64,000 nt of DNA, taken from the NCBI GenBank assembly GCA_965248695.1, contig CBDFKD010000002.1, positions 2,560,001 to 2,624,000 on the forward strand, read 5' to 3'. The stretch comes from Acidobacteriota bacterium. Lineage in GTDB: Bacteria; Acidobacteriota; UBA890; WLXD01. The position numbers and the translations under genes were made by a program. Numbering within the stretch: position 1 is the stretch's first letter; each line of letters opens with the position of its first letter. The notes under the pieces are model-generated. The model was given only the letters and a program-made list of their open reading frames with translations. It ran no database searches and was not told where the DNA came from. Shown here piece by piece: positions 35,343 to 45,362 of this stretch.

Positions 35343-36581
35343 ATGCCCCCTCGCGCCCCGGGAAAACTGGCTCTCGCCTTCGTGCTGATGACCGTTCTAC
35401 TCGATACGGTCGGGCTCGGGATCATCATTCCGGTCACCCCGGAGCTCATCATGGAGCTCACCGGGGAAGGGCTGAGCCGGGCAGCGATATTTGGCGGCTG
35501 GCTGGCGTTCGCCTACGCGATGATGCAGTTCGTGTGCGCCCCGATCCTCGGCAACCTCAGCGATCGGTTCGGTCGCCGCCCCGTACTGCTGTACTCGGTC
35601 GCTTCCCTGGGTATCGACTACCTGGTGATGGCGATGGCGCCGACGATCGTCTGGCTGTTCATCGGGCGCGCGCTGGCAGGGATCGCGGGAGCCTCGTTCA
35701 CCACCGCCTACGCCTACATCGCCGACATCAGCCCACCGGAGAAGCGGGCACAGAACTTCGGGCTGATCGGCGCCGCGTTCGGTGCCGGGTTCATTCTGGG
35801 TCCGGCGATCGGCGGACTGCTGGGTGGCTACGGGCCGCGCACTCCGTTCTTCGTCGCAGCCGGCCTGAGCCTGGCGAACTTCGTCTACGGCTTCTTCGTA
35901 CTGCCTGAGACCCTCGCAGACGACAAACGTCGCGACTTCGACTGGCGGCGCGCTAACCCGGTGGGAAGCCTCTTGCATATCCGACGCCACCCGGCGGTGC
36001 TCGGTATGCTCGCAGCGCTCTTTCTGTGGCAGGTCGCCCATCAGGTAATGCCGAGCATCTGGACCTACTACACGATGCTCAAGTTCGGCTGGTCGGAGGT
36101 CATGGTCGGCGTCTCGCTGGCATCGTTCGGGACGCTCATGGTGCTAGGCCAAAGCACCTTGCCACGGGTCATTGTTCCGAGGTTAGGGGAGCATCCCACC
36201 GCGTCGCTGGGGCTGATCGTCGGCGGCGCCGGTTTCGTCGGCTACGCGTTCGCGACGCACGGTTGGATGATGATCGCGCTGCAGTTCACCTGGCTGCTGG
36301 GCGCCCTGGTGATGCCATCGACCCAAGCACTCATGTCACAGCGCGTTCCTCCCGATGCGCAGGGTGAGCTTCAGGGGGCGGCGGCGAGCCTGTTCAGCGT
36401 CGCGGCGATCATCGGGCCTCCCCTAATGACACAGTTGTTCCGCCGTTTCACCGCAGCGGATGCAGCGGTCAACTTTCCGGGGGTCTCGTTCCTCCTCGCC
36501 GCCATGCTCGCCGTCGGTGCTTTCGTCATCCTGCGGGCAAGCGGCGGCGCACCCGCCGATCGTCCTCAAGAAACCGCCTGA
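35343..36581 (+). CDS. TCR/Tet-family MFS efflux transporter
   Basis: [13 protein letters not shown] (motif A) and [10 protein letters not shown] (motif C); about 12 TM segments. Confidence 0.9.
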
Positions 36582-36627
36582 AGCCAGTGGCCAACGCGAT
36601 CGATTGGCGCCATCAGGCGACCGTAAC

Positions 36628-38121
36628 GTGGTAGCTGACATCGGGCACGTGCACGACGTCGTCATCGTCGGCGGCGGACCGGCGGGATCGGCGGCGGGGC
36701 GATTGCTGGCGCTCTGGGGCTACGACGTCGTGCTCCTGACCCGCGGCCAGGACCCCGAGCGGAGCCTCGCGGTCTCGGTACCACCGAGTGCACGCAAGCT
36801 GCTGCGAGAGATCGGCGTGCTCGACGCGGTCGACGTCGCCGGATTCGTGCGCTCGACCGGCAACACGGTCTGGTGGGGTGGCGGTGAGCCGCGGTCCGAG
36901 CGTTTCGCCGGCGGCGAGACCGGCTACCAGGTGCGGCACGCCGAATTCGACCGCCTGCTCTTGGCCGCCGCCGAGACCGCAGGAACGACCGTTGTGCGCG
37001 ACGCGACGGTGGTCGACGTCGCCGTGGAACTCGAGCCTGCTTGCGCTCGCTATAGCACCGACACCGGCGAGCAAGAGGTCAGGGCCCGCTACGTGATCGA
37101 CGCGTCCGGGCGCCAGGGGGTCGTCGCACGAGCCCTGGAATGGCACGCAGAAACGGCCCCCTCGCGTACCGTGGCGCTCATCGGAACCTGGAGCCGCGAG
37201 ACACCGTGGGATCTCGCTGACGACACCCACACGCTGGTGGAGTCCTTCGCCGAAGGGTGGGCATGGTCGGTTCCCGTCGGCGCCGGACGACGCTATTTCA
37301 CCTGCATGCTCGATCCGGAGGTTTCGGAGCTGTCACGTGGCTCGATGCGCCAGCGCTATCTCGACGCACTGGGACGCACGACCGCCTTCAACCAACTGCT
37401 CGATGGCGCCGATCTCGAGGGGGAGCCCTGGGGTTGCGACGCCTCGTGGTACCGCGCCGAGCGCGTATGCGGCGATCGGTTCTTGCTGGTCGGTGACGCA
37501 GCGTCGTGCATCGATCCGCTGTCCTCGTTCGGGGTGAAGAAAGCCCTGGCGTCGGGCTGGCTGGCGGCGGTGGTGATCAACACCTGGGCGCAGGAGCCGA
37601 CGCTGCGAGAAGCGGCCTCGGCGCTGTTTGCCGATCGCGAGCGGCAGATGTACGACACCTTCCGTTCCCAGGCAGCGCGTTTCTTCGAGACGGTGGCGGA
37701 CGATCACCAGCATCCGTTCTGGACTGGTCGTGCTGGCGGCGCGGATCAGGAAACTCCGGAGGACGACATCGATACCCTCCGCCACGATGAGGCAGTGCTG
37801 AAGGCCTTCGAAGAGCTCCGAAACAGCCCGTCGATACAGCTGACTGCCGAAGCGGACGTACATGTAGTCAACCGACCCGCGATCGGCGATCGGCGCGTGG
37901 TGCTGGAGAAGCGTCTCGCAACACCGGCGCTTCCCGGTGGGCTGCGATTCTTGCGCGGCGTCGACGTGCCGCGCCTGATGGCGCTGGCTCCGGACAACCA
38001 GCAGGTACCGGACCTCTTCGCGGCCTACAACGAGCGCTGCGCACCGGTCCCCCTGCCTGACTTCATCGGTGCGGTATCGGTGCTTTTGGCCAAGGGCTTC
38101 CTTAGAAACGACGCAACGTGA
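36628..38121 (+). CDS. qhpG: QhpG-like FAD-dependent monooxygenase (CTQ biogenesis)
   Basis: GGGPAG, DASGR, GWAW and VGDAASCIDPLSSFGV motifs; stop overlaps the start of the qhpA frame; GTG start approximate. Confidence 0.78.
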   Translation: MVADIGHVHDVVIVGGGPAGSAAGRLLALWGYDVVLLTRGQDPERSLAVSVPPSARKLLREIGVLDAVDVAGFVRSTGNTVWWGGGEPRSERFAGGETGYQVRHAEFDRLLLAAAETAGTTVVRDATVVDVAVELEPACARYSTDTGEQEVRARYVIDASGRQGVVARALEWHAETAPSRTVALIGTWSRETPWDLADDTHTLVESFAEGWAWSVPVGAGRRYFTCMLDPEVSELSRGSMRQRYLDALGRTTAFNQLLDGADLEGEPWGCDASWYRAERVCGDRFLLVGDAASCIDPLSSFGVKKALASGWLAAVVINTWAQEPTLREAASALFADRERQMYDTFRSQAARFFETVADDHQHPFWTGRAGGADQETPEDDIDTLRHDEAVLKAFEELRNSPSIQLTAEADVHVVNRPAIGDRRVVLEKRLATPALPGGLRFLRGVDVPRLMALAPDNQQVPDLFAAYNERCAPVPLPDFIGAVSVLLAKGFLRNDAT

Positions 38122-38177
38122 TAGAACCCCACGGGCAGCCGCTCCCGCCCGGCATCCGCCGCTTGACTGAGGATTCG

Positions 38178-39923
38178 ATGATCAGAGGGACCGCTCTTCC
38201 GTCGGCTCGAATCCCGCTCCTGATCGCCTTTGTCGCCATCATCGGAGTCGGGATACCCGCGTTACCTGTCTCGACGTCCGCAGCACCGCTGCAATCGGAG
38301 AGCTCCGCGGACAGTGGAGACGACGACGACGCGGCCGGATTCCCGGTGACCGACAGCGCTACGGTGACCAACTGTGGCTCCTGCCACGCGGTGGACGAGG
38401 CGGGACGCATGACGCGAATCTCGTACATCCGCAAGTCACCGGAGGGGTGGCAGCAGACGCTCCGCCGCATGGTGATGCTCAACGGGGTCGAGCTCGACCC
38501 CGCCATGGCTCGCGACATCGTGCGCTATCTGTCCAACGACCATGGGCTCGCACCGGAAGAGGCCAAGCCCGGCGCCTTCGAGGCGGAACGGCGACTGATC
38601 GACCACGACTACACCGCCGACAAGGACACAGAGACGACCTGCATTCAGTGTCACTCCATGGGAAGGGTGATCACCGAGCGACGCACCGAGGAGGAGTGGG
38701 GGCTCCTCATGTCCATGCACCGTGGCTACTTCCCGTACGTCGATTTTCAGTCGTTCCGCAACACGGCGCGCTCTGGCCCAACCGACAGCAACCCCGACGC
38801 CCGGCATCCGATGGACAGGGCAATCGCGCATCTTTCCGAGGCTTTTCCGCTCGAGACCCCCGAATGGTCGGCGTGGTCGGCGAACCGACGCCCGGCGCGC
38901 CTCGCCGGTAGCTGGGCGGTGGCAGGACATTCTCCAGGGCGTGGCCCGGTGTACGGCACGGTCGAGGTGACCACCGTCAACGACAGCGACGACGAGTTCC
39001 GTACGCACGCCAACCTGATCAACCCACGCAGCGGCAACGAGACGCGGCGCAACGGGCGGGCGATCGTCTATACGGGATTTCAGTGGCGCGGCAGCTCGAG
39101 CGCTGAAGGCAGCACGGTAGGGGCGTTGCGCGAAGTCATGTTCGTCGAGCGCGACTGGCGCACGATCGAAGGCCGCTGGTTCACCGGCGCCTATGACGAG
39201 ATCGGCATCGACGTGACCCTGCACCGGGCCGATATCCCGCTGATCGCCGGGGTGTATCCGCAGGCGCTGCGCAACGATGCCGCCGCCCGCGAGGTGACGA
39301 TCTTCGGCGCCAACCTCCCATCCGGCCTGACCGCGGCGGATGTCGACCTCGGCCCCGGCGTCGAGGTCGACCGGTTGCTCGAGGCGAGTGACACCGTGAT
39401 TCGCGTTCTGGCCACTGCCGCCGCCGATGCCGCGATCGGCATTCGCGATGTGTTCGTCGGCGATATCGGGCGGACGGACGGCTTGGTCGTCTTCGACACC
39501 GTCGACTCGATCCGTGTGTCGCCGGACTGGAGCATGGCGCGCCTCGGAGGCGGGGTTGCACCGAAGGGGCTGGCCCAGTTCGAGGCATTCGGCACGTCCA
39601 ACGGCCCCGATGGCGAATCCGGGACGGACGACGACATCGACCTGGGGTTGGTGGAGGTCAACTGGAGCCTCGAGGAGTATTCGGCAACGTTCAACGACGA
39701 CGACCTGGCCTACGTCGGTAGCCTCGACGACAACGGCCTGTTCACGCCAGCGCTCGACGGGCCGAACCCCGAGCGCACTGGCGACCGTAACAACGTTGGT
39801 GACGTATGGGTGGTCGCGACTTATGGCGAGACGGACGGTGATCGACCACAACGCGGTCGGTCACACCTCGTTGTAACCGTGCCGCTTTACCTGAACTGGA
39901 GAGGATGGGAGCCCGGACAATGA
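38178..39923 (+). CDS. qhpA: Quinohemoprotein amine dehydrogenase alpha subunit (diheme)
   Basis: Signal peptide; CGSCH and CIQCH heme motifs; RISYIRKSPEGW, GPNPER and LVVTVP motifs. Confidence 0.93.
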   Translation: MIRGTALPSARIPLLIAFVAIIGVGIPALPVSTSAAPLQSESSADSGDDDDAAGFPVTDSATVTNCGSCHAVDEAGRMTRISYIRKSPEGWQQTLRRMVMLNGVELDPAMARDIVRYLSNDHGLAPEEAKPGAFEAERRLIDHDYTADKDTETTCIQCHSMGRVITERRTEEEWGLLMSMHRGYFPYVDFQSFRNTARSGPTDSNPDARHPMDRAIAHLSEAFPLETPEWSAWSANRRPARLAGSWAVAGHSPGRGPVYGTVEVTTVNDSDDEFRTHANLINPRSGNETRRNGRAIVYTGFQWRGSSSAEGSTVGALREVMFVERDWRTIEGRWFTGAYDEIGIDVTLHRADIPLIAGVYPQALRNDAAAREVTIFGANLPSGLTAADVDLGPGVEVDRLLEASDTVIRVLATAAADAAIGIRDVFVGDIGRTDGLVVFDTVDSIRVSPDWSMARLGGGVAPKGLAQFEAFGTSNGPDGESGTDDDIDLGLVEVNWSLEEYSATFNDDDLAYVGSLDDNGLFTPALDGPNPERTGDRNNVGDVWVVATYGETDGDRPQRGRSHLVVTVPLYLNWRGWEPGQ

Positions 39924-41371
39924 GCGTACGCAGTGAAGTCGCGTTGTCGATAGGTGAGTACCACTCTTTCGAAGCCGCCGGCCGCCAGTTCCTGTATATG
40001 GTTCCCAGCGCCGCGGTATTCGGCCTCGACGAGACTGCAGCCGCAGTGCTGGCGCGTCTTGACGAGCAACCCATGGCGGCTTCCCAGCTGGTAGAAGACC
40101 TCGCCGACCGCTTCGCCCCGGAAGCCGTCTACCACAGCGTCAACGAGCTCATGCAGGTGCGCGCGGTGGGCGAGTCGGACGCGGTCCCGCAGCCGTTGCC
40201 GCGGCAGATGCCACCGACGCCGTTCCCGCTGACCACGCTGGTGCTCAACGTTACCAACCAGTGCAACCTCAGCTGTGGCTACTGCTACGAGTACAGCGAC
40301 GACAAGATCGTCGACACCGAGAACGGCCGCCAGCCCAAGTTCATGAGCGAGGAGACGGCGCGCCAGAGCGTCGACTTCATGCTCGAGGAGTCGGCCGGGA
40401 TCGAGACCGTCCACCTGACGTTCTTCGGCGGAGAGACGCTGATGAACTTCCCGGTCCTCGCGGAGACGGTCGGGTACGCGCGCCAGCGTGCCGACGAGCT
40501 CGGCAAGGGCATCGAGTTCAGCCTGACGACCAACGCCACCTTGCTGCGCCCGGACATCATCGAGTGGCTCGCCGAAAACGAGATCGGCGTCACCGTGTCG
40601 ATCGACGGTCCCAAGGAGATGCAGGACCAACTTCGCGTCTTCAAGGGCACCGGCGGCGGCACGTACGACATCGTGGTTCCGAAGGTGCGTGAGCTACTGA
40701 AGCGTCACACCACCCGACCAATCGGCGCTCGGGTCACGCTGACCAAGAACGTCCTCGACGTGAAGCGCATCTACCAGCACCTGCGCGAGGAGATCGGCTT
40801 CTGGGAGGTCGGGTTCGCCCCGGTCACCACTTCCTGGGGCCGCGACTGGGCCATAGGCGACGACGGCTTCGACCTGATGCTCTCGGGTTTCAACGAGCTC
40901 GCCGAGGAGTTTCTCGAGGCAGCGCTACAGAACCGTCACCATGGCTTCTCCAACGTCAAGGACACGATCGAGGAGATCCACAAGGGTGTGAGCAAAGCCT
41001 ATCCCTGTGGCGCTGGCCTCGGGCTGCTCGGCGTCGCCACCGGTGGCGACGTGGCGCTGTGCCATCGTTTCGCCGGCTCCGACGAACACAAGCTCGGCAC
41101 GGTGAGCGACGGCATCGATCGCAGCGGCCAGCTGCACTTCCTCCAGACCCATCACGTCGACGACAAGACCGACTGCCAGAAGTGCTGGGCGCGGCCCCTC
41201 TGTGCTGGGGGCTGCTACCACGAGGCCCACACTCGCTACGGCACCACCCGCGGACCGAACCTGCACTATTGCGAGTGGATTCGCGCCTGGACCGACACCT
41301 GTTTGCGCGTCTATGGTGAAATAGCCGAGCACAATCCCGGCTACCTCGCCATCTTCGAAGGTAGGGACTAA
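39920..41371 (+). CDS. qhpD: Radical SAM/SPASM thioether-forming maturase
   Basis: CNLSCGYC; FFGGE; SPASM Cys cluster CGAG..CH..CQKC..C..GC..C; ATGA overlap with qhpA. Confidence 0.95.
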   Translation: MSVRSEVALSIGEYHSFEAAGRQFLYMVPSAAVFGLDETAAAVLARLDEQPMAASQLVEDLADRFAPEAVYHSVNELMQVRAVGESDAVPQPLPRQMPPTPFPLTTLVLNVTNQCNLSCGYCYEYSDDKIVDTENGRQPKFMSEETARQSVDFMLEESAGIETVHLTFFGGETLMNFPVLAETVGYARQRADELGKGIEFSLTTNATLLRPDIIEWLAENEIGVTVSIDGPKEMQDQLRVFKGTGGGTYDIVVPKVRELLKRHTTRPIGARVTLTKNVLDVKRIYQHLREEIGFWEVGFAPVTTSWGRDWAIGDDGFDLMLSGFNELAEEFLEAALQNRHHGFSNVKDTIEEIHKGVSKAYPCGAGLGLLGVATGGDVALCHRFAGSDEHKLGTVSDGIDRSGQLHFLQTHHVDDKTDCQKCWARPLCAGGCYHEAHTRYGTTRGPNLHYCEWIRAWTDTCLRVYGEIAEHNPGYLAIFEGRD

Positions 41372-41721
41372 TGAAGCATCTGAAACCAGTCAACCAGAAG
41401 GCGGGACGGATCGAGCACCATCTGGCGCGCGACGTGGTGGCGCTGAGTGATCCGCAGGAGGGTCAGGGGGTTCCGCAGCAGCCCGACGAGCCACATATCC
41501 CGCTCGGATGCTCGCTGGTGTTCCAGCCCGGATGGGAGGTTGACCGCAGCGGCGGTACCGCCGGCCTGTGCGCACCGGTGGAGCGTGACCTGTTCGATTG
41601 CTACCTGGGCTGCTTCTGGCCGGCGCAGGTTCCCGATCAGCTCAACTACACGCCCGACTGGACAAAGACCTGCGCCGCAGCCCAGAAGGACTGGCGCAAG
41701 ATCGACCTGATCTTCCCGTGA
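41371..41721 (+). CDS. qhpC: Quinohemoprotein amine dehydrogenase gamma subunit precursor (CTQ-bearing)
   Basis: Leader MKHLKPVNQKA...DVVAL; PGWEVD, CFWPAQVPD and DWRK motifs; C47-E56, C67-D73, C77-W83 and C81-D89 match the canonical spacing. Confidence 0.96.
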   Translation: MKHLKPVNQKAGRIEHHLARDVVALSDPQEGQGVPQQPDEPHIPLGCSLVFQPGWEVDRSGGTAGLCAPVERDLFDCYLGCFWPAQVPDQLNYTPDWTKTCAAAQKDWRKIDLIFP

Positions 41722-42854
41722 GCTCGGTCAGGGATCGTATCGCCGGCGTGGGTCGGTCAGGCTTGATGGTGTCGTGCACCGTGGCGCTGGTAGTACTGCT
41801 CGGCGGTGCGGCCGCGCCGCAGCAACCGAGCGGCGGCGACGCCACGATGTACGTCGGCACCTATGACCATGCGATCACGATCATCGACGAGTCCACGATG
41901 TCGGTGACCGGCAAGATCGCGGCCACGGCCGGGATCCCGCGCAACATGCAGCTGACACGCGACAACGAGCGGCTCTACTCCACCAGTGCGGATTTCGAGT
42001 ACATCGAGATCTTCGACGTCGCCAGCGGCGAATCGATCGACGTCCACCACCTGAGCCACGACACCTCGAAGGTGCGGATCTGGCAGGTCGCCATCCACCC
42101 CAGCGAGGAGTACCTGATTCTCCATACCAGCACCGACACCAAGCTCATCGACCGCTTCGAGATCGGACCGCCGGTGCTGCAGCAATACAACCTCGAAACT
42201 CGCGAGGTGGTGCGCGACATCCCATGGCCGGACGGCGAGGAGCGCGAGTTCAGCCAGATGATGTTCTCGCCCGATGGCGACCTGCTCTACGTCATGGGCG
42301 AGGAAGTGATGATCCTCGAGACGGAGAACTTCGAGCAGGTCGATACCTGGGACATGTCGCGTCCTATGGAAACCGGCATGGGGCTGCTGAACTTCGGCAT
42401 CAGCCGCAACATCTATGACGATCCCGGGTTCTTCACCGGGCTTTTCCGCACCACCGACCCGATCAATGGCCGCCGCATGATGGGCGTGGCGCGGGTCAAC
42501 CTGCCCGAGAAGAGCGTCGACTTCTACACCCTGGGTCCCTCGATGGGCGTGAGCTTCTCACTGGCGCCGGGAGCGAAGAAGGCATATGGCCTCCTTCAGG
42601 ACATCGGCCACTACGAGTTCTGGACCTTCGACCTGGAAGGACGGCAGGTAGAGAACCGCCAGACTTTCGATGGGCGACCGCGAATGCGCGTGAAGCCAAG
42701 CTCCAACGGCGAGCTGCTTTACGTCTTCAATGCCGGCAACACCGTCGACGTCTACACCGCCGCCGATTACACCTTCCTGTACACGCTGGCCCTGGACGGC
42801 GACACGACGACTGATCTGATCGTCATTCCGTCCGCCGGCGCCGGGCGCCCCTGA
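41718..42854 (+). CDS. qhpB: Quinohemoprotein amine dehydrogenase beta subunit (beta-propeller)
   Basis: GTGA overlap with the qhpC stop; signal peptide; propeller repeats (FSPDGDLLY, PSSNGELLY); operon position. Confidence 0.8.
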   Translation: MSSVRDRIAGVGRSGLMVSCTVALVVLLGGAAAPQQPSGGDATMYVGTYDHAITIIDESTMSVTGKIAATAGIPRNMQLTRDNERLYSTSADFEYIEIFDVASGESIDVHHLSHDTSKVRIWQVAIHPSEEYLILHTSTDTKLIDRFEIGPPVLQQYNLETREVVRDIPWPDGEEREFSQMMFSPDGDLLYVMGEEVMILETENFEQVDTWDMSRPMETGMGLLNFGISRNIYDDPGFFTGLFRTTDPINGRRMMGVARVNLPEKSVDFYTLGPSMGVSFSLAPGAKKAYGLLQDIGHYEFWTFDLEGRQVENRQTFDGRPRMRVKPSSNGELLYVFNAGNTVDVYTAADYTFLYTLALDGDTTTDLIVIPSAGAGRP

Positions 42855-42870: not shown

Positions 42871-44667
42871 ATGAGCGCCCGGGCAGCGCGCGGCGGTGAC
42901 CTGCGCTGGGCGCTGGCCTACGTGCTGCCCTACTGGCACCGCCTGGCGCTGGTCATCGGGCTGAGCTTCGTCAGCACCCTGCTGTCGCTTTACCTACCGT
43001 ACCTGTCCAAGGAGCTGGTCGACGACGCCCTCCTGGGACAGAACATGGGCGCGTTGGTGCGCATCATCGGCCTGTTCACCGTCGTCACGCTGCTGAGCTT
43101 CGCGATCAACGTCACCAGCGGGCTGCGCTACACGCGCGTGTCGGCCGAGATCCTCTTCGACATGCGGCTCGACATCTACCGCCACCTGCAGCGGTTGTCG
43201 CCGCGCTACTACGCCCACGCACGGCTCGGCGACATCGTGTCGCGCATCAACAACGACATCGGTGAGATCCAGCGTATCGCCGCCGAGACGGCGCTCGCGT
43301 GGGTCGGCAACGTGCTTTTCCTGGTCGGCACGGTGGGGGTGATGATCTGGCTGGACGCCCGGCTGTTCGCGGTCAGCGTGGCGCTGATGCCGATCAGCAT
43401 GGTGGCGCTGGTGTACTACCGGCGGCGACTCGAGACGAGAGTGCAGACGATGCGCGAGCGCAGCGCCGACATCGGCAGCTTTCTGATCGAGACGCTGCAG
43501 GGCATGAAGCTCATCGTCTCGTCCAACGCACAGTCACGCGAGGAGGGCCGTTTCCGTGGCAAGAACGATGCCTTCATCGAAGCGCTCATGGGCATGCGGC
43601 GGCTCAGCTACCTGGCCGGAGGCCTGCCGGGTCTGATCCTCTCGGCGGGCACCGCGGTCGTCTTCCTGTACGGCGGCAGCAGGGTCATCTCCGGGGCCAT
43701 CACGATGGGCGATCTGGTCGCCTTCATGGCGTATCAGATGCTCCTTCTGTCGCCGGTACAGGGCTTGATGGGGCTGTACACGAACCTCGCCACGGCGCGC
43801 GTATCGCTGGGTCGCGTTCACGAGATCCTCGACACTCCGATAGAGGTGACCGAGCGCGACGACGCCGTCGCCCTTGAGGAAGCACGCGGCGAGGTGGACC
43901 TCGACGCCGTGAGCTTCACTTTCGACCGCGGCGCCGCGGTTCTCGACGACGTTACCCTGGCGGTGCGCCCAGGCGAGGTGGTGGCAATCGTCGGACCCAG
44001 TGGTGGGGGCAAATCGACCGTCGTCGATCTGCTGCTCCGTCATCTCGATCCGAACGACGGAGAAGTTCGTCTCGACGGGCACCGTCTCCCCGACCTGCGA
44101 CTCGACGACGTACGGCGCCATGTCGTGGCCGTCGAGCAGGAGCCGTTCGTGTTCAACACCACCATCGCCGAGAACATCCGCTACGCGCGGCCGGGCGCCA
44201 GCGATGATCAGGTGCATGCGGCAGCCTCGTCGGCGGGCATTGCCGGCTTCATCGAGGGCCTGCCCGACGGCTATCAAACTGTCGTCGGCGAGCGCGGCAT
44301 GGCCGTCTCGGCGGGCGAGCGCCAGCGCATCGCCATCGCGCGCGCGTTCCTCGCTGATCCCGCCGTGCTGGTGCTTGACGAGGCCACCGCGTCGCTCGAC
44401 CCGGTCTCCGAGCGTCATGTCATCGACAGCTACGAGGCCATCATGCGCGGACGAACGACGTTGCTGATCTCGCATCGTTACGAGATGGCACGACGCGCCG
44501 ACCGCGTGGTGGTGATCGATGGTGCGCGCATCGTCGAGCAAGGCACCCCCGAGGCGCTCGCGACCGCATCGGGACCCTTCGCGGCGCTGTTTGCCAGCGA
44601 CGTGGCCCGCGCGGCGTCCGGCAGCGGCGACGATCTTGCCCAGGCAGACGGCCGGACGCGGGCGTGA
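42871..44667 (+). CDS. qhpF: ABC exporter (fused TMD-NBD), QhpF-like
   Basis: TM domain plus GPSGGGKS, VSAGERQR and VLDE motifs; located inside the qhp operon. Confidence 0.8.
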   Translation: MSARAARGGDLRWALAYVLPYWHRLALVIGLSFVSTLLSLYLPYLSKELVDDALLGQNMGALVRIIGLFTVVTLLSFAINVTSGLRYTRVSAEILFDMRLDIYRHLQRLSPRYYAHARLGDIVSRINNDIGEIQRIAAETALAWVGNVLFLVGTVGVMIWLDARLFAVSVALMPISMVALVYYRRRLETRVQTMRERSADIGSFLIETLQGMKLIVSSNAQSREEGRFRGKNDAFIEALMGMRRLSYLAGGLPGLILSAGTAVVFLYGGSRVISGAITMGDLVAFMAYQMLLLSPVQGLMGLYTNLATARVSLGRVHEILDTPIEVTERDDAVALEEARGEVDLDAVSFTFDRGAAVLDDVTLAVRPGEVVAIVGPSGGGKSTVVDLLLRHLDPNDGEVRLDGHRLPDLRLDDVRRHVVAVEQEPFVFNTTIAENIRYARPGASDDQVHAAASSAGIAGFIEGLPDGYQTVVGERGMAVSAGERQRIAIARAFLADPAVLVLDEATASLDPVSERHVIDSYEAIMRGRTTLLISHRYEMARRADRVVVIDGARIVEQGTPEALATASGPFAALFASDVARAASGSGDDLAQADGRTRA

Positions 44668-45362
44668 GGCTCCGACTCGACGAGGCGCCGTTCGACGGCG
44701 ACGGAAGCGGCGTAGACGTAGCGATCATCGACAGTGGCATCAACACGGACAATCCTCACATCACCGCCTACGCCACCGGCGTGGCGATCGATCGCAACGG
44801 CGGCGAGCACGACGACGTCCTCGACCGCCTTGGTCATGGAACCGCGGTCACCGCGGCGATCCACGAGAAGGCGCCCGGCGCACAGCTTCATGTCGTGCGC
44901 GTGTTCGAGACATCGCTGACGACCAGCGCCGCCAACCTGGCGCGAGGAATCGACTGGGCGGCCGGGCGGAGGCTGCAGCTGGCCAACCTCAGCCTCGGCA
45001 CGCCCCGGCGCGAGCACGCCGAGCTGCTGCGCGACGCCGTGCTACGCGCCCGCACGGCCGGGGTGCTGGTGGTCTCGGCCCGCAGCCATCGCGCCATGCG
45101 CTGGTGGCCGGGGACGCTGACCGAAGTTGTCGGCGTCGTGGCTGACGATACGTGCGACCGTGACGAGATCATCGTCGACCGTCCCACGTCTGGTGGCGGG
45201 CTGACGCTGCGCGCGTCGCCGTTGCCGCGCCCGATTCCCGGCGTTGCGCCGGAGCGGAACGTGCGGGGCATCAGCTTCGCGGTGGCCAACGCAACGGGGT
45301 TCCTTGCCCGCGCGCTAGCGTCGCCAACCGGCAAGGAGTGGGTGCTCGAAGCGTTCGACTAA
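44664..45362 (+). CDS. qhpE: Short subtilisin-like leader peptidase, QhpE-like
   Basis: VAIIDSG (Asp), HGT (His) and GISFA (Ser); 232 aa with no signal or propeptide; GTGA overlap. Confidence 0.85.
   Translation: MRLRLDEAPFDGDGSGVDVAIIDSGINTDNPHITAYATGVAIDRNGGEHDDVLDRLGHGTAVTAAIHEKAPGAQLHVVRVFETSLTTSAANLARGIDWAAGRRLQLANLSLGTPRREHAELLRDAVLRARTAGVLVVSARSHRAMRWWPGTLTEVVGVVADDTCDRDEIIVDRPTSGGGLTLRASPLPRPIPGVAPERNVRGISFAVANATGFLARALASPTGKEWVLEAFD

Follow-up and report, generated by a model that had tools for sequence, protein, structure and literature searches.

The locus described here raises the question of whether the gamma subunit QhpC carries a fourth thioether cross-link in bacteria other than those in which it was characterised. 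It lies in a stretch of 64,000 nucleotides from an Acidobacteriota bacterium (positions 2,560,001 to 2,624,000, forward strand, of contig CBDFKD010000002.1, assembly GCA_965248695.1), which is called the window throughout and to which all coordinates refer. The gene qhpC (41371..41721, + strand) encodes a gamma-subunit precursor of 116 amino acids, with the leader and a linker at about residues 1-40 and the core at residues 41-116. The thioethers of the characterised mature subunit are Cys7-Glu16, Cys27-Asp33 and Cys41-Asp49, and the cysteine tryptophylquinone (CTQ) cofactor is formed by Cys37 and Trp43, as given in the accessible parts of four papers (PMC8172795, PMC7876137, PMC13692751, PMC11951088). 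QhpC of the window has a fifth cysteine, Cys101 (Cys61 in mature numbering), which is followed at C-x5-D spacing by Asp107 (mature Asp67). Judged from alignments, Asp67 is dependent on Cys61, being invariant in the sequences that have this cysteine and replaceable in those that lack it. The best explanation of this pattern would be a thioether from the sulfur of Cys61 to the beta carbon of Asp67, made by QhpD, a radical S-adenosylmethionine (SAM) enzyme, and the chance that it is right is put at about even.

The fifth cysteine of QhpC

QhpC matches PF08992 with an E-value of 2.4e-32 (111.2 bits against a cut-off of 25) and the NCBIfam equivalog model NF037958 with 124.4 bits against a cut-off of 50, the latter across the full length of the model. 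The translation of the open reading frame (ORF) has exactly five cysteines, C47, C67, C77, C81 and C101, along with E56, D73, W83, D89 and D107. In a phmmer comparison with the chains of the PDB, the alignment of residues 45-116 has no gaps and covers residues 5-76 both in 1jju_C from Paracoccus denitrificans (E 2.6e-20) and in 1jmx_G from Pseudomonas putida (E 9.5e-20), the offset to both chains being exactly +40. At this offset the known cross-links fall on C47/E56, C67/D73 and C81/D89 for the thioethers and on C77/W83 for CTQ (codons within 41509..41637, + strand). Both chains have alanine opposite Cys101 and read D-W-R opposite D107-W108-R109. A preliminary description of this DNA had given the residue positions and the offset, together with an alanine at the Paracoccus position; the translation, the codons and the alignment bear this out in every detail, and the alanine is present likewise in the Pseudomonas chain. 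The accessible text of PMC7876137 counts residues 66 and 67 of the P. putida gamma subunit among the surface acidic residues and writes them as 'Glu66, and Glu67', unlike the 1jmx_G chain, which reads Glu-Asp at 66-67.

The codon of Cys101 (TGC, 41671..41673, + strand) would specify the donor of the proposed fourth thioether and that of Asp107 (GAC, 41689..41691, + strand) the acceptor. In C101-x5-D107 the cysteine is N-terminal to the aspartate, and the spacing lies inside the known x5-x8 range of QhpD sites. The non-CTQ cysteines of the characterised gamma subunit all donate thioethers to a downstream Asp or Glu, and these bonds are made by QhpD, according to the accessible parts of three papers (PMC8172795, PMC7876137, PMC13692751).

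Dependence of Asp67 on Cys61

With the window QhpC as query, 2081 proteins were found at E <= 0.001, and the best 120 of them, at 58-100% identity, were analysed. Among these best 120, Cys101 and Asp107 are each present in 120/120, and the cysteines number five in 119 sequences and six in one. A census was then made of 476 distinct proteins, 113 of them skipped as unparsable. Asp67 is found in 194/194 sequences with Cys61 and in 151/169 without it, the other 18 having Gly (8), Asn (5), Ser (3), Glu (1) or Gln (1); the records in which it is replaced include Pseudomonas chlororaphis and Brachymonas denitrificans. In the test which the preliminary description had proposed, Cys61 proves to be conserved in its clade together with Asp67, and the invariance of the pair wherever the cysteine occurs is stronger than was expected.

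As the sequences are related, the raw counts of 194 and 169 are not independent, and the changes at position 67 were therefore counted by parsimony on trees from which columns 61 and 67 had been left out, these trees being poorly resolved at about 72 columns. In a set of 326 distinct cores, position 67 has 0 changes in the 159 rows with Cys61, over a subtree length of 23.7 substitutions per site, against 16 changes in the 167 rows without Cys61, over 21.1. The third protein search had been seeded with a D67N sequence and enriches variants of Asp67, and for this reason the test was repeated on the 221 earlier rows, which gave 0 changes over 23.1 with Cys61 and 3 over 9.65 without. At the rate of the rows lacking the cysteine, the Poisson probability of zero changes in the Cys61 rows of this subset is 8e-4. 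When the full set is taken as only five events, one for each replacing residue, this probability becomes 0.004.

Among the Cys61 rows, zero changes are seen only in the columns C37, C41, W43, P48, D49, C61, D67 and W68, where C61 is unchanged in the 159 rows by definition. Hence, Asp67 is no less fixed in these rows than C41-D49 and the residues of CTQ. The neighbouring columns of the same rows change 8-42 times, and 59, 60, 62, 63, 65 and 66 among them 10-42 times. In the census, 185 sequences have the x5 spacing between Cys61 and Asp67, and nine have x6 (P0163, P0303-P0308, P0228 and P0265), in which the insertion stands right after the cysteine and often reads S-G-P. The C-x5-D spacing that had been likened to that of Cys27-Asp33 is thus confirmed in the 185 sequences but is not universal, and the size of the ring, if it exists, would not be fixed because the x6 form occurs.

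Distribution of Cys61 among QhpC lineages

The fifth cysteine, first described as an extra one, is real, but it is not peculiar to this genome: it is widespread across at least four phylum-level groups, and it is the characterised proteobacterial enzymes that lack it. The genome (5.89 Mb in two contigs) has a single qhpC. Most of the 80 best related genome loci bear the label Acidobacteriota (Vicinamibacterales, Bryobacterales, Terriglobia, Blastocatellia) or Gemmatimonadota, and QhpC has exactly five cysteines in 78/80 of them. Four loci near the acidobacterial type (L012, L023, L070 and L072) carry the labels Bifidobacteriaceae, Thermodesulfobacteriota, cyanobacterium and Bifidobacterium, and these are probably mislabelled bins.

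Clustering at 50% identity gave 150 listed representatives: 108 were fragments or frameshifted, and 42 were parsable through the C-terminal tail. Cys61 is present in 35/42 of the parsable representatives and absent in 7. Of two divergent Cys61 clusters, one has Bacillus badius, several Aneurinibacillus species and other Bacillaceae as its named members, and the other has metagenome-assembled genomes labelled Candidatus Lindowbacteria and Poribacteria. When metagenome contigs were scanned with a member of the Lindowbacteria/Poribacteria cluster, C-x5-D-W was found in 78/80 loci, and the other two were unparsable. The sequences without Cys61 are of the C-x-D-P-C-W-W type, and all their named members found are proteobacterial (Azoarcus, Hydrogenophaga, Burkholderia, Brachymonas, Pseudomonas chlororaphis, Thiopseudomonas and others). 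The two characterised enzymes are themselves of this type.

These divergent sequences bear on the notion that Cys61 has no particular function, having been inherited with a slow C-terminal segment, and that its coupling to Asp67 arises secondarily from clade-wide differences in constraint. The high similarity of the best 120 homologues throughout the C-terminus would suit this notion, as would the greater variability of the segment 58-73 as a whole in the proteobacterial type. It is nevertheless barely credible. Some Cys61 representatives are just 35-48% identical to the window QhpC, and in these the cysteine and Asp67 persist while nearly all of the five or six intervening residues are replaced; the change counts of the neighbouring columns given above speak against it as well.

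In a 103-row tree built without column 61, the presence or absence of the cysteine needs 2 changes, against a mean of 34 in 500 shuffles, none of which was as low. One origin of the split would be compatible with this unrooted tree. The simplest reading is that Cys61 is probably ancestral and was lost once in the proteobacterial type, since every deep lineage has it and it occurs to either side of the midpoint.

Several single sequences depart from the general pattern. P0363 and P0407 have an N-terminal half of the proteobacterial type and a tail of the Cys61 type, and the switch falls exactly at the conserved C-W-W-P-A-Q-V-P-D after the CTQ tryptophan. On account of this switch and their short contigs (1822 and 507 bases), they are taken not as genuine proteobacterial cases of Cys61 but as probable assembly chimeras or possibly recombinants. 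In P0176 and P0273 (contigs of 1903 and 2418 bases) the CTQ cysteine Cys37 is replaced by Thr while Cys7, Cys27, Cys41 and Cys61 are kept, so that either the cofactor would not be linked to a cysteine or another cysteine would substitute. The deep-branching P0205, P0288 and P0265 have seven cysteines, the two extra ones near mature position 19 and near the C-terminus (K/Q-L-C), and this pair could form a disulfide or further cross-links.

Fourth thioether or another role for Cys61

The Cys61-Asp67 thioether is favoured because the pair has the orientation and spacing of Cys27-Asp33, because the two residues are co-conserved, because no alternative partner was found in this clade, and because qhpD adjoins qhpC. 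The residues that replace the cysteine are informative about the kind of role it may have. Position 61 without Cys is occupied by A (127), K, S, T, N, L, E, Y, R, V, I, D or Q. As the site accepts Lys and Glu elsewhere, the invariance of Cys61 points to chemistry and not to volume, and tight packing is unlikely to be its cause. The idea that Cys61 is a small residue buried on a helix's hydrophobic face (a stripe of 61, 64, 68 and 71) was also considered and given little weight, because the site takes Lys, Glu or Arg where Cys is absent and because the cysteine survives a one-residue insertion directly after it.

Cys61 could instead be a free thiol in non-covalent contact with Asp67, for example through a thiol-carboxylate hydrogen bond or as the cap at the start of the C-terminal helix. 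In such a role it would lend stability to the fold or to the interface with the alpha or beta subunit, and no fourth cross-link would exist. This is unlikely, though it deserves serious attention, as co-conservation demands functional coupling only and not a covalent bond. Free cysteines also survive maturation, for Cys37 is left unmodified by QhpD according to the accessible text of PMC7876137. Furthermore, a helix at mature 64-70 in a low-confidence AlphaFold2 model directly follows Cys61, and G, S, P or N, as is typical where a helix starts, often come after the cysteine. On the other hand, an invariant thiol would be unusual in an exported protein at a site which elsewhere takes Lys, Glu, Arg or Leu. 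In a tree with a length of about 23, at least one substitution by Ser, Thr or Ala should have arisen there, whereas the sole exception seen is a Tyr (P0135). All other non-CTQ cysteines of QhpC, moreover, are linked as thioethers, as the accessible part of PMC8172795 has it.

A different chemistry of Cys61 is rather improbable. It might be a metal ligand together with Asp67, a redox-active or persulfide thiol, or the donor of a link to another acidic residue or to a tryptophan. The invariance of Cys61 argues for some specific chemical role, the two sequences without Cys37 (P0176 and P0273) keep Cys61 and hint that it may lie near the cofactor, and the conserved W57 and W68 flank the site. These two tryptophans are, however, equally conserved where Cys61 is absent, and no acidic residue other than Asp67 is invariant in all Cys61 forms, several divergent ones having replacements of D18 and E31. 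A column-by-column comparison found no third co-conserved residue that could serve as a ligand, and the accessible parts of the QhpC literature mention no metal site in the gamma subunit.

A disulfide from Cys61 to the dihaem alpha subunit QhpA, the beta-propeller subunit QhpB, a second gamma subunit or a small thiol was also weighed. The odd number of cysteines (five) and the export of QhpC to an oxidising compartment would favour it. However, QhpA of the window has four cysteines only (86, 89, 175 and 178), which make up its two CxxCH haem motifs, and QhpB has a single one at ORF residue 60, four residues after the probable start Met and in the presumed signal peptide. Across the 80 related loci, the four haem cysteines are the only ones in 56/66 full-length QhpA, the remainder having five (six sequences), six (two) or eight (one), with a partial match in one. 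QhpB has no cysteine beyond about query residue 85 in 61/70, one in seven and two in two. By these counts no conserved partner cysteine exists in QhpA or QhpB across the 80 loci, and the conserved inter-subunit disulfide that the preliminary description had named as an alternative is thereby excluded for the clade of the window. A disulfide of Cys61 would also leave its coupling to Asp67 unexplained, and as an account of this cysteine at large it is very improbable.

Some points weigh against the fourth thioether, beyond the relatedness of the sequences and the poor resolution of the trees noted above. Cys61 occurs in a distant metagenomic lineage in which QhpA and QhpB have extra cysteines, the four-cysteine QhpA being found in only 6/47 and a QhpB free of cysteine in only 6/23. 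A disulfide partner is possible there, although the extra cysteines are variable and not universal, so that the partner would not be conserved even in that lineage. AlphaFold2 gave a mean pLDDT (predicted local distance difference test score) of 49.9 for the full precursor (56 aligned sequences) and of 48.8 for the mature domain (103), too low for any conclusion on geometry; modelling of the gamma subunit can probably succeed only with its cross-links and partner subunits included. The helix which the low-confidence model of the mature domain places at mature 64-70 would, if it is real, contain Asp67 and leave Cys61 three residues ahead of it, and it may hold Asp67 too far away for an S-to-C-beta bond unless there is some local rearrangement. 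A cysteine with a downstream Asp is not sufficient for cross-linking either, because QhpD spares Cys37, which it leaves free in the accessible account of PMC7876137. The x6 spacing in nine sequences and the Tyr at position 61 of P0135, a representative of the acidobacterial type, are further exceptions. As the segment 58-73 is more variable overall in the proteobacterial type, part of the relaxation of position 67 could be regional, and Asp67 also has a role independent of the cysteine because it is kept in 151/169 sequences without Cys61. Lastly, the covalent bond is deduced from co-conservation, and QhpD is its putative maker.

The qhp operon and the proposed maturation

The gene qhpC lies in a complete and closely packed operon, qhpG-A-D-C-B-F-E, all on the + strand. 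The first gene, qhpG (36460..38121), encodes the flavin monooxygenase that hydroxylates the CTQ tryptophan (NF049967, 243.9 bits against a cut-off of 240; Pfam FAD_binding_3). In its listed ORF about 66 residues (36460-36657) precede the match to the QhpG family, and because the match begins only at residue 67 the true start is probably further downstream. It is followed by qhpA (38118..39923), which encodes the dihaem alpha subunit (TIGR03908, 473.6 bits against 274) with four Qn_am_d or haem-binding Pfam domains. The radical SAM/SPASM maturase that forms the thioethers is encoded by qhpD (39905..41371), which matches TIGR03906 with 568.6 bits against 453 as well as Pfam Radical_SAM and Fer4_12; its N-terminus has a PqqD-like leader-recognition domain at residues 34-84 (Pfam PqqD). 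The stop codon of qhpD and the ATG of qhpC share one base (TAATG).

Downstream of qhpC, the gene qhpB for the beta-propeller subunit (41766..42854) stands at its expected place in the operon, with a probable start at the ATG at 41766 although the listed ORF begins at the TTG at 41598. QhpB reaches only 42.5 bits against the cut-off of 223.2 of the QH_beta model TIGR03907, whereas the alpha and gamma subunits, QhpD and QhpG all pass theirs. Given this gap between QhpB and its operon partners, the propeller subunit of the clade of the window is, by its model score, very divergent from the characterised QhpB. The next gene, qhpF (42871..44667; Pfam ABC_membrane and ABC_tran), encodes an ATP-binding cassette exporter with permease and ATPase parts, its role being assigned from the position in the operon and by analogy with the accessible text of PMC7876137. 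The last one, qhpE (44664..45362), encodes a subtilisin-like leader peptidase (NF049966, 158.6 bits, just below the cut-off of 165; Pfam Peptidase_S8). Overlaps are found between G and A (4 bases, 38118-38121), A and D (19 bases, 39905-39923), D and C (1 base, 41371) and F and E (4 bases, 44664-44667), and such overlaps of successive genes point to translational coupling within the operon.

The leader start MKHLK..N.KA is common to QhpC of the window and to the proteobacterial, Bacillus-type and other forms. The number of residues before Cys7 (41371-41508) is 46 in the window QhpC and ranges from 34 to 73, with a median of 46, in the Cys61 type, compared with 34 in 110/127 sequences of the proteobacterial type. 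The additional part is a linker rich in Pro and Gln between a conserved D-V-V-A motif and the core, and owing to this longer linker the QhpE cleavage site may differ from that of the proteobacterial type.

If the fourth thioether is real, maturation could proceed as follows. The QhpC leader would be held by the PqqD-like domain of QhpD, and the cytoplasmic enzyme would close the rings C47-E56 (x8), C67-D73 (x5) and C81-D89 (x7), plus the ring C101-D107 (x5). QhpG would hydroxylate W83, QhpE would then cleave off the leader, and QhpF would export the cross-linked peptide. The peptide would join QhpA and QhpB, and C77-W83 would become the CTQ cofactor. Leader recognition, hydroxylation of W83, cleavage, export and closure of CTQ are carried over in this scheme, by homology, from the Paracoccus and Pseudomonas systems.

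Comparison with known systems

QhpC of the window belongs to the same families (PF08992 and NF037958) as that of Paracoccus and Pseudomonas and shares with it all four known cysteines, the Glu and Asp acceptors and the CTQ tryptophan at +40, as well as the D-W-R motif, the leader start and the operon partners QhpA, B, D, E, F and G. It differs at position 61, where the Paracoccus and Pseudomonas proteins have Ala and are therefore limited to three thioethers plus CTQ. The sequence around the CTQ cysteine is also different, C-Y-L-G-C in the window against C-x-D-P-C, as are the length of the region before Cys7 and the far more divergent QhpB, both described above.

Within the same polypeptide, the Cys27-Asp33 ring is the closest parallel to the proposed one, as in both the cysteine is upstream of Asp at x5 spacing, a hydrophobic residue follows the acceptor, and the gene of the same enzyme adjoins. 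Unlike the putative Cys61-Asp67 ring, that of Cys27-Asp33 was established experimentally, according to the accessible parts of PMC8172795 and PMC13692751. Likewise, the ranthipeptide maturase PapB is a radical SAM/SPASM enzyme that, at several sites per substrate, links the sulfur of cysteine with the beta or gamma carbon of an Asp or Glu further downstream. The homology of QhpD and PapB is stated in the accessible text of PMC13692751 and PMC8172795, and QhpD of the window scores 262.7 bits with the PapB model, under its cut-off of 340, while it passes its own equivalog model. Unlike PapB, QhpD acts on an enzyme subunit and not on a secreted peptide, and the ring sizes differ.

The accessible parts of PMC7876137, PMC13692751, PMC8172795 and PMC11951088 describe three thioethers in the gamma subunit and mention no fifth cysteine. 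A mention of a fifth cysteine or of a fourth QhpD thioether was likewise not found in the accessible QhpC and QhpD literature, where older surveys and supplements could hold one, and priority cannot be claimed. The work of Nakai in 2014 (Biochemistry 53:895) is reportedly a survey of qhp operons, Gram-positive ones included.

Implications for the QhpC family

QhpC is the standard example of thioether cross-linking by a radical SAM enzyme in a protein rather than a peptide, and the knowledge of it derives from two proteobacterial enzymes. Half of the total credence is given here to the view that the gamma subunit with three thioethers and CTQ is a reduced form which arose secondarily and is restricted to the proteobacterial type, and that the fourth ring is present elsewhere. 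If this is true, most QhpC lineages, in at least four phylum-level groups and with the cultured Bacillus and Aneurinibacillus among them, would carry an x5 or x6 ring. The common natural subunit would then have one ring more than has been described, and QhpD would handle four sites instead of three. Five internal cross-links in about 76 residues would amount to a new knot topology around the C-terminal segment.

The hypothesis is cheaply testable, as cultured organisms of the Cys61 type exist and the published assay, in which QhpC and QhpD are co-expressed and the product is analysed by mass spectrometry, applies directly. The proteobacterial enzymes would, if the ring is real, be natural 'knock-outs' of it and useful for judging what each ring contributes. 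The rule of co-variation, by which an acceptor is fixed only when its donor is present, could likewise predict cross-links in other substrates of radical SAM enzymes. Resting on a clean co-variation signal, the finding would revise the standard picture of a textbook cross-linked subunit.

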